A stretch of DNA of 49,834 bases, from the sequence record OX638287; one strand, 5' to 3'. Made by a program: the position numbers and the translations under genes. This stretch comes from Escherichia phage UP30. Shown here one piece after another: positions 861-9,686 of the stretch (positions are counted from its first letter, which is position 1; the number at the start of each line of letters is the position of its first letter). The notes beneath the pieces are model-generated. The model had not been told where the DNA came from. It ran no database searches and saw nothing but the letters and a program-made list of their open reading frames with translations.

Positions 861-1055
861 ATGGAAACGCAAATTGACGTAGTGGTTGTTCAGCGTGACT
901 CTACTCATGAAAAGGGTCTGTTCAAGAAGGGAGTCGAAATCACGATAGATCTTGAGGATATGGTTGCATATCACTCGGGCCTCACCTGGAACGTGGTGCG
1001 CGTGGGTAGCGACTACAAACTCAAAGGATTTAACACTTACTTCGCGGAGGCTTAA
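861..1055 (+). CDS. hypothetical protein (64 aa)
   Basis: ORF with GAGGAAG RBS, preceded by box + hairpin promoter module. Confidence 0.55.
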   Translation: METQIDVVVVQRDSTHEKGLFKKGVEITIDLEDMVAYHSGLTWNVVRVGSDYKLKGFNTYFAEA

Positions 1056-2104: not shown

Positions 2105-2211
2105 ACTTTAATACAGTAGCGCTATGGTCTGCCGTCTGGTTCTTCTGCATGGGTCACGTTATGGTCGGCATTGTGGTAATGCTTCTCCTGTGTGCGGGGG
2201 CGTTCGAATGA
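2101..2211 (+). CDS. putative small hydrophobic protein (36 aa, MNFNTVALWSAVWFFCMGHVMVGIVVMLLLCAGAFE)
   Basis: ATGA start/stop overlap with upstream gene and with next gene; hydrophobic; below the 60-aa ORF-track cutoff. Confidence 0.3.
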   Translation: MNFNTVALWSAVWFFCMGHVMVGIVVMLLLCAGAFE

Positions 2212-2381
2212 TGCGAATATTGATTTTCATGATGGCGGCGGTCGCCATGGCTATCCTGATAGTGTCAGGATGCGGAGAGGTCAGAGATAGCTGTCATAAG
2301 ACCGGGAACCAGGTTACTACGTTTGTGATGGTTGGCAACGTTCTGCTACCAATCACATCAAATGAAATCACTTGCGAATAG
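2208..2381 (+). CDS. putative lipoprotein (57 aa; signal peptide with lipobox IVSGC)
   Basis: In-frame internal ATGATG of ORF 2124-2381; N-terminal hydrophobic stretch then Cys lipobox. Confidence 0.4.
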   Translation: MMRILIFMMAAVAMAILIVSGCGEVRDSCHKTGNQVTTFVMVGNVLLPITSNEITCE

Positions 2382-2390
2382 GATTTAACA

Positions 2391-2582
2391 ATGGCTGATT
2401 TTATGCACCAAATGATTGCAGTATTCAAAGGCAGCGATGACCAGGAAGTGAAAGAGTGCTTTACCGTTGACAAGCCTTATAGTGCGTCGCTTACCAGCTT
2501 CGGGAACATCTCATTGCTTGATGATAATGGAGATCCCTGGATATTCGACGAAGATACTGATTGCTTCGAAATTAAAGAATAG
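2391..2582 (+). CDS. hypothetical protein (63 aa)
   Basis: ORF, stop TAG is start of box. Confidence 0.5.
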   Translation: MADFMHQMIAVFKGSDDQEVKECFTVDKPYSASLTSFGNISLLDDNGDPWIFDEDTDCFEIKE

Positions 2583-3142: not shown

Positions 3143-3183
3143 GCACGAATTGTTAAAAGTGGATTTGGCCTGACTGGTATAAT
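3141..3183 (+). promoter_or_regulatory. early promoter module
   Basis: aagcacgaattgttaaaag; TGgTATAAT 3175-3183. Confidence 0.55.
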
Positions 3184-3720: not shown

Positions 3721-3869
3721 TGGTTACCTGGGTTTTGATTATCCTGATGAGCAATGGACCGGATCACGTATATATGAACAGCCAGCATTCATGCAATGAG
3801 GCTCGGGCAGTCATTGCAGATAACAAGCCGTTCGGATACGAAGTAAAAACTATGTGCGTTAAACGATAG
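3720..3869 (+). CDS. putative small protein (49 aa, MVTWVLIILMSNGPDH...)
   Basis: TAATG overlap with upstream stop, GAGGTG RBS, stop TAG embedded in box; hydrophobic N-terminus. Confidence 0.4.
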   Translation: MVTWVLIILMSNGPDHVYMNSQHSCNEARAVIADNKPFGYEVKTMCVKR

Positions 3870-3914
3870 CACGAATTGCTAAACCTTCCGCAAGGCCATT
3901 TGATATAGTGGCCT
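3867..3914 (+). promoter_or_regulatory. early promoter module
   Basis: tagcacgaattgctaaac; aaggccatTTGATATAGTggcctt. Confidence 0.6.
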
Positions 3915-3949
3915 TATTGAAGCAGGGCAACCAATCAGAGGAATCAGCT

Positions 3950-4156
3950 ATGGCTACACGACTCACTCAGTGGCAGATTTACGACAAGGCATCACGCCTA
4001 CGTGAATCACTTCGCGGACTGACACCGAACGACCGCATGGAGATTATCGGGCACGCATTGCACGAACTCACGCCGCCGGACGTAACCTATCATTCATGCG
4101 GCAATAAATTCTGGAACGTAACATTCGAGGTGAAGAAACATGAGCAAGCGTCATAA
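3950..4156 (+). CDS. hypothetical protein (68 aa)
   Basis: Track ORF starts at 3908 inside the promoter hairpin; ATG 3950 follows CCAATCAGAGGAAT leader. Confidence 0.5.
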   Translation: MATRLTQWQIYDKASRLRESLRGLTPNDRMEIIGHALHELTPPDVTYHSCGNKFWNVTFEVKKHEQAS

Positions 4157-4427
4157 GTTAAAAATCGCTCCGGTACATTTCATCGGGGTAATGAACGGAA
4201 CCAAAACGGCTGAGTTCCGAGTCAATGACCGCAACTTCCAGCCCGGCGATATCCTGGAGCTATGCGAGTTCGAGCGCGATGAGTTTACCGGGTGGGAGGT
4301 TCACGCCAGGGTATCCGATGTTACCGATGTGACGCCATACATCAATCGCGGGTATGACGAGCAAGAATGCGACTTCACGCAATACGTGATGTTATCAATC
4401 AAGCCTTACAGGAAGATTAGGCCATGA
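4140..4427 (+). CDS. ASCH-domain-like protein (95 aa)
   Basis: GTKTAEFR matches the GxKxxExR ASCH signature. Confidence 0.45.
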   Translation: MSKRHKLKIAPVHFIGVMNGTKTAEFRVNDRNFQPGDILELCEFERDEFTGWEVHARVSDVTDVTPYINRGYDEQECDFTQYVMLSIKPYRKIRP

Positions 4428-5080
4428 AATTTGAATGCGTATCTAGTAGCGGATCTGGTTTCAAGTATGGAAAAACTTACGAAGGTGTTCGCGTAAATGA
4501 TGACAGTTTTATCATTACAGCTGAGAACGGTTGCAATGTGAACGTTGTTCGACGTAACGAATACCAGGAAATTTTCCTGCCGTATGGCGGTAGCTCAAAA
4601 TATATCTTCCATCGAATCGTAGATGGTGTTAAATTTAAAGACGTAATTGAAGCAATCAACCAACTACATAATAAAGAGGTAAAAACTATGAAATTCGAAT
4701 GTATCAGCGATAACACCAAAAAATTTACCGTTGGCAAAATCTACGACGCGCCGACTGAGAACGCAAAGCACACTGTAGCGCTAACCGATGACACGGGCCG
4801 CCACCGCATTGCAACCGTGACGCATAATGGCGAAGGTCTTCGCTGGAATAGCGGCGGCACTAAGTTTGCAACGTTCGGCAAGAAGAAGCGGAAATTTAAT
4901 ACCAGTCGAATCAAGGGCGATTTCCGCATCGAACATGGTAAGATTCACAGCGTTAAGCCAAGCGAAGTTGATGGTAAAGTCAAGCCTAAGCTGACCAACA
5001 AGGACATTGATAATCTGGCGAATCTGGCTATGGCTACCGTGCTTCTTATTTCTCTTATCGTGCTGTTTTTCGTAGTTTAA
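4424..5080 (+). CDS. membrane-anchored protein with two tandem MKFEC repeats (218 aa)
   Basis: Internal duplication (MKFECVSSSG... / MKFECISDNT...), C-terminal hydrophobic helix LAMATVLLISLIVLFFVV. Confidence 0.55.
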   Translation: MKFECVSSSGSGFKYGKTYEGVRVNDDSFIITAENGCNVNVVRRNEYQEIFLPYGGSSKYIFHRIVDGVKFKDVIEAINQLHNKEVKTMKFECISDNTKKFTVGKIYDAPTENAKHTVALTDDTGRHRIATVTHNGEGLRWNSGGTKFATFGKKKRKFNTSRIKGDFRIEHGKIHSVKPSEVDGKVKPKLTNKDIDNLANLAMATVLLISLIVLFFVV

Positions 5081-5088
5081 CTTAAAAT

Positions 5089-5120
5089 GGGAATCGTTCC
5101 TGAGCGGTTCCCTATTTTTA
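5089..5120 (+). terminator. intrinsic terminator
   Basis: 8-bp stem gggaatcg/cggttccc then TATTTTTA. Confidence 0.45.
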
Positions 5121-5237
5121 TGAGGTGAATATGAATAGCTTTATGCCTGATTTTAAGAACTGGAAAAACGAACCTCCATCATTTCATGAGTTGTTATTCT
5201 GCCTCCTGTTTCTGACTCTATCTCTTAAGGGTGTTTT

Positions 5238-5513: not shown

Positions 5514-5960
5514 ATGAAACACTTAATCTGTATTGAAGCACCTAACGATGAATACACTCTTCACGGCATTGGTATGTTCAAAGGTCACTATATGACCGCA
5601 AGCATTTACGACGCGCATCGAGGTGACGGCGATCTAATGATTAAGTCAAAAGAGGTTAATCCGTACATCATGCAGAATCTTGGTAATAACGAATATATGG
5701 CCTACGGATGCAATGCGGTTTACAAGCACATCAAGATCCGCAAGCGTGTAGTGCGTGCATTCAAGAAAATTGCAATGAAGCACTGGAAGATGAGCAAGAA
5801 GGACGCCGGACGCTGGGCGCGCAATGTTGCTGACTCATACTTCTACCGTAACGGTGAGTCCTGCTACTTCCTTATCGATGAACTTATGGAAAACTGCGGA
5901 GGCGACTTCAGCCAGATTAGCTTTGACGATTGGGCTAACTATGAGATTAGTTGCTGGTAA
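5514..5960 (+). CDS. hypothetical protein (148 aa)
   Basis: Track ORF starts at 5472 inside the hairpin; ATG 5514 follows GAGGAAACA RBS. Confidence 0.5.
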   Translation: MKHLICIEAPNDEYTLHGIGMFKGHYMTASIYDAHRGDGDLMIKSKEVNPYIMQNLGNNEYMAYGCNAVYKHIKIRKRVVRAFKKIAMKHWKMSKKDAGRWARNVADSYFYRNGESCYFLIDELMENCGGDFSQISFDDWANYEISCW

Positions 5961-6009
5961 TGGCACGAATTGCTAAAACTTGCTCAAGGGTATTTGATAG
6001 AATGCCCTT
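5961..6009 (+). promoter_or_regulatory. early promoter module
   Basis: tggcacgaattgctaaaac; aagggtatTTGATAGAATgccctt. Confidence 0.55.
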
Positions 6010-6043
6010 CGTTGAGTTAAGCAACCAATCAGAGGAATAAATC

Positions 6044-7258: not shown

Positions 7259-7303
7259 CACGAATTGCTAAAGCGTCGGTGGGGTGATTTGATATAGTTA
7301 CCT
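7256..7303 (+). promoter_or_regulatory. early promoter module
   Basis: tagcacgaattgctaaagc; TGaTATAGT 7290-7298. Confidence 0.55.
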
Positions 7304-7884: not shown

Positions 7885-8114
7885 TGTTCGGTTTAAGTGA
7901 AGCGGAATGGAATGTAGTAAAGCGTGCGGCTAAAGAACTAAATAAATTCGTCAGTGGCATGAAGAAAGAAGACCGTAAAAACGACAAGATCATGATTGAC
8001 GTGATTTCTACTCATCACAAAAAGGTCGAGCTACTAATTGACCGTTACAAGTTTGTATGGACCGCCGGGTATATTGCCGGGCGCGTAGGCAACAAAGAAG
8101 GGGATTACGAGTAA
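7884..8114 (+). CDS. hypothetical protein (76 aa)
   Basis: ORF, TAATG overlap. Confidence 0.5.
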   Translation: MFGLSEAEWNVVKRAAKELNKFVSGMKKEDRKNDKIMIDVISTHHKKVELLIDRYKFVWTAGYIAGRVGNKEGDYE

Positions 8115-8317
8115 TGGATAATTTACCAAAGAAAGGCAATCAGGTTCGATGCATCACTTCACGCAATGGTGATGCTTTCTCGGCGGGATGTTTGTACGAC
8201 GTTGAAAAAGTCAGTAAAGCTAAGAGACTCGTATATGTGTACGGAGATGATGGAAACATGCATGAGATTGATTACCCGCAGGATATGAGTAAGGGTCAGT
8301 TTGAAATTAATGATTGA
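8114..8317 (+). CDS. hypothetical protein (67 aa)
   Basis: In-frame ATG within ORF 8057-8317, TAATG overlap with upstream stop. Confidence 0.45.
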   Translation: MDNLPKKGNQVRCITSRNGDAFSAGCLYDVEKVSKAKRLVYVYGDDGNMHEIDYPQDMSKGQFEIND

Positions 8318-9647: not shown

Positions 9648-9686
9648 CGTTACGGGCGTGCAAGCGCCCATACAGGAGACTTGATT

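Follow-up and report, generated by a model that had tools for sequence, protein, structure and literature searches.

Two described phage proteins stand closest to the one analysed here. The first is gp68 of phage T1 (ST68, YP_003876), and the second, by fold, is Gp54 of phage Bas11 (PDB 9AXB, PF25180), a six-stranded barrel of 66 amino acids (aa) with a prominent β1-β2 loop and a rare topology, which is non-essential, has no known function and directly activates the defence protein CapRelSJ46; its homologues from Bas5, Bas8, Bas10 and SECphi27, though close, fail to do so (Zhang et al., PMC11578894). Related small barrels form the families DUF7244 and DUF6501, the former being assigned to the SH3 clan by InterPro and occurring as a standalone protein that adjoins the lysis cassette of T1-like phages (PMC13164509). 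With regard to the membrane, TssL/SciP is a C-tail-anchored inner-membrane protein that is inserted by YidC (PMC3426401). In this work we analysed a 49,834-nucleotide stretch of DNA from Escherichia phage UP30 (sequence record OX638287), called the window from here on, and in it the open reading frame (ORF) placed first in Table 1, which is annotated in UP30 as a hypothetical protein. Judged by its sequence, the product of this ORF is the two-domain form of T1 gp68, and the locus is a new architectural variant (duplicated, tail-anchored and probably expressed as two isoforms) of a known small phage barrel protein, not a new kind of system.

T1 gp68 is a direct homologue. Domain 2, the linker and the C-terminal transmembrane (TM) helix of the UP30 protein align end to end with gp68, and both genes share the syntenic slot and the terminator behind it. 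The T1 protein has one barrel in 124 aa and its gene lies directly behind the early promoter cassette, whereas the UP30 protein has an extra N-terminal barrel followed by a helix, and two genes stand between promoter and ORF. The family to which both belong was recovered as PHROG phrog_10580 (E 1.6e-109, residues 1-217 against profile positions 1-211 of 212), and the protein clusters matching the ORF product were 43, every one of them from a T1-like phage. No family above threshold was obtained for the product in Pfam, NCBIfam or PADLOC; the sole match in the PADLOC scan, to a Type I specificity subunit with 17.8 bits, was taken as chance. The flanking DNA is 87-93% identical to that of about 70 Escherichia and Shigella tunaviruses (Drexlerviridae, Tunavirus).

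An initial annotation of this DNA had described a membrane-anchored early protein with a tandem duplicated domain. The limits it gave for the ORF were exactly those found here (+ strand, 218 aa), and so were the motifs it took as the mark of the repeat, MKFEC (residues 1-5 and 89-93) and F-x-x-G-K-x-Y, which occurs in both copies. When residues 1-88 were compared with residues 89-218 by BLASTP, a match with E 2e-5 was obtained across the first 21 residues, and the Smith-Waterman local score of 58 between the halves was reached by none of 2000 shuffles. Past residue 25, approximately, single-sequence comparison of the halves detects nothing, and the extension to about 58 columns needs profiles: a hidden Markov model (HMM) of domain 1 matches domain 2 with an independent E value of 3e-5, and hhalign of the two domain profiles gave a probability of 94.4% (E 8.5e-8, 58 columns). 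Taken together, these four comparisons show that the duplication is real. The tandem repeat of the initial annotation therefore stands; its unit of about 80 aa does not, the unit being a barrel of about 65 aa to which copy 1 adds a helix of 22 residues (67-88). Among six two-domain phages the ratio of nonsynonymous to synonymous substitution rates (dN/dS) was 0.15 for domain 1 and 0.09 for domain 2, values which show that both domains are translated and kept under purifying selection. An HMM scan of all six frames of the window for a third paralogue gave as best other match E 0.11 at 8042-8314, and the ORF found there corresponds to phrog_4927, a related barrel family.

It could be argued that the long frame is an artefact of annotation or sequencing, in which two adjacent small paralogous genes seem fused through a missed stop or a frameshift. 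The presence of an internal start with a good Shine-Dalgarno sequence, at which the single-domain genes of T1 and IME347 begin, would agree with this idea. However, the frame across the junction is open in 14 independently sequenced relatives, as it is in some 30 protein clusters with lengths of 210-220 aa, and domain 1 carries no stop codon and is constrained as described above, so that this explanation is effectively refuted and hardly credible.

The structure of the protein was modelled with AlphaFold2 on an alignment of 25 sequences. Both domains were modelled confidently, with block means of the predicted local distance difference test (pLDDT) of about 77-93 (83-93 for domain 2), and each one showed six strands at near-identical relative positions and a long β1-β2 loop, both of which are features described for Gp54. 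The junction appeared as a helix, spanning residues 71-82 when the whole protein was modelled and 71-84 when domain 1 was modelled by itself, while residues 157-191 had a pLDDT below 50 and residues 192-217 were modelled as a helix. As modelled, the barrels have the SH3-like fold of Gp54 from Bas11; the fold search was carried out with domain 1. No relationship to Gp54 was detectable at the level of sequence: PF25180 gave no match for the whole protein at E <= 0.1 nor, at E <= 1, for the separate domains, the domain profiles compared by hhalign with a 12-sequence Gp54 profile gave probabilities of 0.8% and 1.4%, and sequence searches of the PDB gave no match. The positive control for the PF25180 model was another ORF of the window (861..1055, + strand, 64 aa), a genuine member of the family with 121.9 bits that lies about 3.4 kb upstream of the two-barrel ORF. 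The architecture also sets the two apart, Gp54 being a free protein and the UP30 barrel being duplicated and tethered to the membrane.

The relationship to DUF7244 and DUF6501 was evaluated in the same way. These barrels share with the UP30 protein an N-terminal motif, K-x-x-C-[IV]...F/L-T-x-G-K-x-Y...DD-x-G, and tandem repetition of the unit is common among them, whereas the barrels of UP30 are longer, with about 65 aa and six strands. The DUF7244 score of the ORF (16.6 bits against a cut-off of 27) stayed below the gathering threshold, as did DUF6501, whose best E value among domain-2 sequences was 0.031. When 1.84 billion representative proteins were searched exhaustively with HMMER, the domain-2 profile retrieved only 11 proteins at E <= 1e-3. 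Two of these were the family's own cluster representatives (P0014 and P0046), three were single-barrel proteins of 104-145 aa with a C-terminal helix, and five, with E from 7e-9 to 5e-4, contained 4-6 tandem units of the form K-x-x-C-[IV]...L-T-x-G-K-x-Y...DD-x-G; an NHL-repeat protein (P0077) was taken as chance. All five tandem-repeat proteins match several PHROGs, phrog_4927 included, and by inspection of their sequences none has a hydrophobic helix at its end; P0072 and P0076 pass the Pfam threshold of DUF6501, and P0076 passes that of DUF7244 too. Considering the sub-threshold scores together with the transitive link through P0072 and P0076, we call the protein SH3-/Gp54-like by fold and a remote relative by sequence. 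It was also possible to see the barrel motif C...F/Y...DD-x-G in two further small ORFs on the + strand of the window, one of 67 aa at 8114..8317 (phrog_4927, E 1.8e-29) and one of 63 aa at 2391..2582, and the presumptive early region seems to be rich in small barrels of this type.

The basic linker and the C-terminal TM helix that the initial annotation had proposed were both recovered. The linker contains 14 K/R against 6 D/E. The segment 198-218 has a Kyte-Doolittle mean of 2.68, and the apparent insertion energy of residues 200-218, on a scale whose values reportedly come from Hessa et al. in 2005, sums to about -2.3 kcal/mol, the next-best segment reaching +15; a hydrophobicity scan gave no second hydrophobic segment anywhere in the 218-aa protein. 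The end helix is present in all homologues, even at 30-40% identity, with 0-4 residues after it, and in all of them it is preceded by a stretch of 15 residues with net positive charge (4 K/R against 2 D/E in the UP30 protein) and no signal peptide accompanies it. One helix at the extreme C-terminus, no signal sequence and no other TM segment describe a tail-anchored protein. TssL/SciP has the same single extreme C-terminal helix, lack of signal peptide and cytoplasmic bulk (the last predicted in the phage protein), although no homology exists between the two. The lack of a signal peptide, the positive charge ahead of the helix and the few residues behind it place the barrels, as predicted with the positive-inside rule, in the cytoplasm.

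This orientation bears on the function that the initial annotation had put forward, an envelope-targeting takeover or exclusion factor. The membrane anchor and the duplication of that proposal held, as presumptively did the early region, by position; for an envelope-targeting takeover or exclusion role no support was found, and the predicted topology would leave the barrels in the cytoplasm and not in the envelope. An exclusion function would consist of an anchored early protein that keeps the DNA of another, superinfecting T1-like phage from crossing the inner membrane, blocking its injection, and a membrane protein encoded within a presumptive early region, by an accessory gene of the variable presence typical of exclusion genes, would fit it. 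Yet all the soluble parts would be cytoplasmic, whereas known injection blockers are mostly lipoproteins or have domains exposed to the periplasm, and conservation falls on the barrels rather than on the helix. According to PMC13164509, exclusion functions, cor being one of them, are known from T1-like phages; however, searches of Pfam, PHROGs, NCBIfam and PADLOC gave no match to any named exclusion family, the Cor, Imm, Sp, Sie (SieA) and Llp types included. Taking both sides into account, we consider superinfection exclusion distinctly unlikely.

The form with one barrel was found in several genomes. In T1, ST68 starts at MKFECISDNTKK, which is equivalent to Met89, and has nothing besides domain 2, linker and helix; the single-domain protein has 126 aa in Badaguanvirus IME347 and 104 aa in Sertoctavirus SRT8 and Bas12. 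The slot in single-domain genomes comprises the ASCH gene, the gene studied, a T1p66-like gene, a 447-nt gene and pnk. In IME347, SRT8 and Bas12 the single-domain gene has its own promoter, and in T1, where both the ASCH/DUF3850 gene and the 68-aa gene preceding it are missing, the promoter cassette is fused straight to the ST68 leader. This T1 leader is a chimera of the repeats that bracket the additional UP30 segment: up to ATTGAAGCA it corresponds to window 3890-3924, and from CAACCAAC on to the region before Met89. The bracketing direct repeat, ATTGAAGCA-nnn-CAACCAA, stands at 3916-3934 and 4646-4663, and the similarity of its copies is marginal when taken alone (score 21, reached by 16 of 1000 shuffles). 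The chimeric leader is the pattern expected from the loss of 730 bp, containing the two genes and domain 1, by recombination between the repeats, or from the reverse insertion. We had taken the T1 sequence upstream of ST68 as a 3' remnant of domain 1, an idea that was dropped, this sequence being the window promoter and leader joined to the Met89 leader. Considering that the outgroup genera have a single-domain gene with its own promoter, this form is presumably ancestral; we infer that domain 1 arose in Tunavirus through a duplication together with reading through the leader, and that it was lost again in T1 and in Chapo, the latter having most of it deleted.

The gene varies in other relatives as well. 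In SH2 (L007 701-1504) the stop codon is changed from TAA to CAA, and the product, extended to 267 aa, runs beyond the TM helix and through the stem of the terminator. In vB_SsoS_008 (L003 1501-2112) the protein identity is 44% and several short ORFs lie on both strands, which corresponds to a decayed copy or to poor sequence. A metagenomic T1-like phage (L021 2501-2812) encodes a protein of 103 aa, P0051, with both barrels deleted, in which the first 35 codons or so of another ORF are joined to the linker and TM helix of the gene studied; in UP30 this other ORF (window 2208..2381, + strand) codes for 57 aa with a lipoprotein-type signal (LIVSGC). Since related phages have the gene in shortened or decayed form, or have deleted it, it is, by comparison of these genomes, accessory and non-essential. 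The part coding for linker and TM helix (4889-5077) occurs as two divergent alleles with dN of about 0.5 and saturated dS, one in UP30, SA12KD and Sfin-1 and the other in T1 and pSf-2; they switch at the GKKK motif, which indicates a modular exchange within the gene.

A key aspect of the two-domain gene is that the start of the single-domain one survives inside it. The GAGG of the Shine-Dalgarno sequence before Met89 is invariant in 9 phages, T1 and IME347 included, and in the 14-phage alignment, and at the position of Met89 eight of these 9 phages have ATG, the remaining one, ISF001, having TTG. In T1 and IME347 this codon is the annotated start, and the T1 record (AY216660) carries a ribosome_binding_site annotation at this position. 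A conserved in-frame start with a Shine-Dalgarno sequence at functional spacing is what is seen in phage genes with dual starts, lambda S105/S107 among them. A dual start has also been noted in the pinholin of TLS and T1 (PMC11447400). The UP30 ORF resembles them in having a second in-frame start with its own Shine-Dalgarno sequence, and differs in that the starts are 88 codons, that is, a whole folded domain, apart; both products are here predicted from conservation and from the constraint at synonymous sites.

The region around the internal start also shows a footprint at synonymous sites. In the gap-free alignment of 14 phages, synonymous diversity (piS) was 0.15 over codons 56-100 and 0.07 over codons 76-90, with 0.33-0.43 in the flanks, while nonsynonymous diversity (piN) across the block was similar to that of domain 2. 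After correction for scanning, none of 2000 codon-order shuffles gave so low a 45-codon window, and in the six-phage set the dip had a Fisher p of 0.001. No RNA structure was predicted in this region (z +0.6), and structure was rejected as the cause of the dip. An extended -10-like sequence, TGTTAAATT, lies at 4627-4635 and is invariant in the 14 phages; motifs of its class occur 143 times in the window, and the promoter scan gave no + strand site inside the ORF, so that an internal promoter is a guess. The segment 4580-4690 was considered as a degenerate copy of the whole promoter cassette and discarded, only a leader piece of about 19 nt aligning and nothing of the promoter part. The nucleotide signals for the short product are probably still in use, which would give isoforms of 218 aa and 130 aa.

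Two in-frame starts and a single TM helix also recall a dual-start regulator of lysis timing similar to holin and antiholin, in which two one-helix isoforms antagonise each other. Such a role is very unlikely here: the gene belongs to the early block ahead of terminase and is distant from any lysis genes, and T1-like phages have a complete cassette of holin, endolysin and spanin elsewhere. Moreover, the isoforms would differ by a folded domain of 88 residues and not by a few charged residues, and T1 has one isoform only.

We propose the following explanation. The gene is an accessory one of T1-like phages, probably early, and its product is predicted to be a tail-anchored protein of the inner membrane: the C-terminal helix would insert, a basic flexible linker of about 40 residues would follow inwards, and one or two barrels would remain in the cytoplasm. 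The ancestral gene would have coded for one barrel, linker and anchor behind its own promoter, and in Tunavirus an upstream paralogous barrel, domain 1, would have been fused to it in frame by reading through the old leader. A fusion of this type accounts for the survival of the old ribosome-binding site and of the Met89 start inside the ORF, and the surviving start makes two isoforms probable, one of 218 aa with two barrels and one of 130 aa with a single barrel, equivalent to T1 gp68. The barrels would most likely be modules that bind proteins, kept by the long linker near the cytoplasmic side of the membrane. There they could capture a protein of the host or of a defence system, or change its location, or they could act on a complex that resides in the membrane. 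The conserved barrels, the protein binding of Gp54, the flexible and variable linker and the constant anchor together favour a tethered binding module. Our confidence is high for the architecture and its evolution and tentative for the function as a binding adaptor, which is possible rather than probable; to the explanation as a whole, a tethered protein-binding accessory module, we give about an even chance.

The basic linker admits a different assignment, in which linker and SH3/KOW-like barrels would form a membrane anchor for nucleic acids, tethering replication, transcription or RNA repair as in the case of p16.7 of phi29. The KOW-like fold and the neighbouring ASCH and PNK genes are consistent with it. 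Nevertheless, the linker is the least conserved part of the protein and exists as two very divergent alleles, T1 keeps the single-domain protein yet has no ASCH gene, and for Gp54, which comes nearest in structure, the only known role is that of a ligand binding a protein. We consider this anchor unlikely.

Several points weigh against the tethered protein-binding module. SH3-/KOW-like barrels with a basic linker would suit nucleic-acid binding too. The topology is predicted from charge and hydrophobicity rules; the Gp54-like fold is attributed to domain 2 by its homology to domain 1 and its matching strand positions; and the match to Gp54, with no similarity of sequence, could reflect convergence among SH3-like barrels. 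The synonymous dip reaches about 100 nt upstream of Met89, beyond what a ribosome-binding site needs, and could instead mark an internal promoter or a segment that was lately exchanged by recombination. In addition, a literature search gave no usable transcriptome of a T1-like phage and no study of this protein or its family.

A more far-reaching reading is a counter-defence device of two isoforms, in which membrane-tethered barrels of Gp54 fold would bind CapRel-like or other immune sensors or effectors of the cytoplasm and sequester them at the inner membrane, and the start inside the ORF, perhaps aided by a promoter there, would give a one-barrel isoform with another target range or timing. 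We regard this reading as improbable. If it were true, it would provide the first function for the Gp54 fold and explain the abundance of small barrels in the early regions of Drexlerviridae.

With respect to the significance of the locus, Gp54 of Bas11 is among the few phage proteins known to be directly sensed by a bacterial immunity protein. The recurrence of this rare barrel in a conserved slot of T1-like phages, accompanied by a genuine gene for Gp54 and by one or more further small-barrel genes, suggests a modular protein-binding family in the accessory regions of Drexlerviridae. The locus is furthermore a clean case of upstream extension of a gene through its own leader, with the old start signals kept and a measurable footprint at synonymous sites. 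The homologues in T1 (ST68), Bas12 (bas12_0070) and Bas13 (bas13_0070) make deletion of the gene and the search for a partner feasible. Current concepts are not changed by these results; the gain is an incremental and testable annotation.

The features of the gene and of its transcription unit are collected in Table 1.

Table 1: Position of the two-barrel gene, its parts and its transcription unit in the UP30 window.
Feature	Position	Strand	Description
Whole ORF, 218 aa	4424..5080	+	Domain 1, helix, domain 2, basic linker, C-terminal TM helix
Domain 1, aa 1-66	4424..4621	+	Six-stranded β-barrel with long β1-β2 loop, Gp54-like fold (modelled)
Junction, aa 67-88	4622..4687	+	Predicted α-helix of domain 1; 3' part is the leader of the internal start
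Domain 2, aa 89-155	4688..4888	+	Paralogous six-stranded barrel (modelled); best-conserved part of the family
Linker, aa 156-197	4889..5014	+	Basic, predicted disordered, net charge about +8
C-terminal TM helix, aa 198-218	5015..5077	+	Predicted tail anchor; nothing after it
Low-synonymous-variation block, codons 56-90	4589..4693	+	Upstream of and across the internal start
Internal start	4673..4690	+	Shine-Dalgarno AAAGAGG at 4673-4679, 8 nt, ATG of Met89 at 4688-4690
Promoter cassette of the unit	3867..3909	+	Palindrome TAGCACGAATTGCTA at 3867-3881; extended -10 TGATATAGT at 3901-3909
68-aa protein gene, phrog_18601	3950..4156	+	Upstream, co-transcribed
ASCH/DUF3850 protein gene	4140..4427	+	Upstream, co-transcribed; stop overlaps the ORF start (ATGA)
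Intrinsic terminator	5089..5122	+	Ends the transcription unit; 10-bp stem, then T-run

The unit runs from the promoter cassette through the 68-aa gene, the ASCH/DUF3850 gene and the ORF to the strong terminator (at 5089-5112), which is annotated in SA12KD and T1 and kept in 9 phages. The TGA of the ASCH/DUF3850 gene overlaps the ATG of the ORF at 4424-4427 (ATGA), an arrangement that suggests translational coupling. The whole block upstream of the terminase genes (large subunit at 9681..) is a series of short rightward transcription units, and is presumptively the early region. The intergenic cassette is repeated along it, and is formed by a palindrome TAGCACGAATTGYTA, a variable hairpin and an extended -10 sequence, TGATATAGT or TGGTATAGT; copies are located at 821-829, 1560-1568, 3175-3183, 3901-3909 and 7290-7298, and also at about 5900-6040. 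These repeated cassettes are probably the set of early promoters and operators of the phage. They lie about 40 nt upstream of the first ATG of each unit, and their hairpin part carries a terminator annotation in SA12KD.

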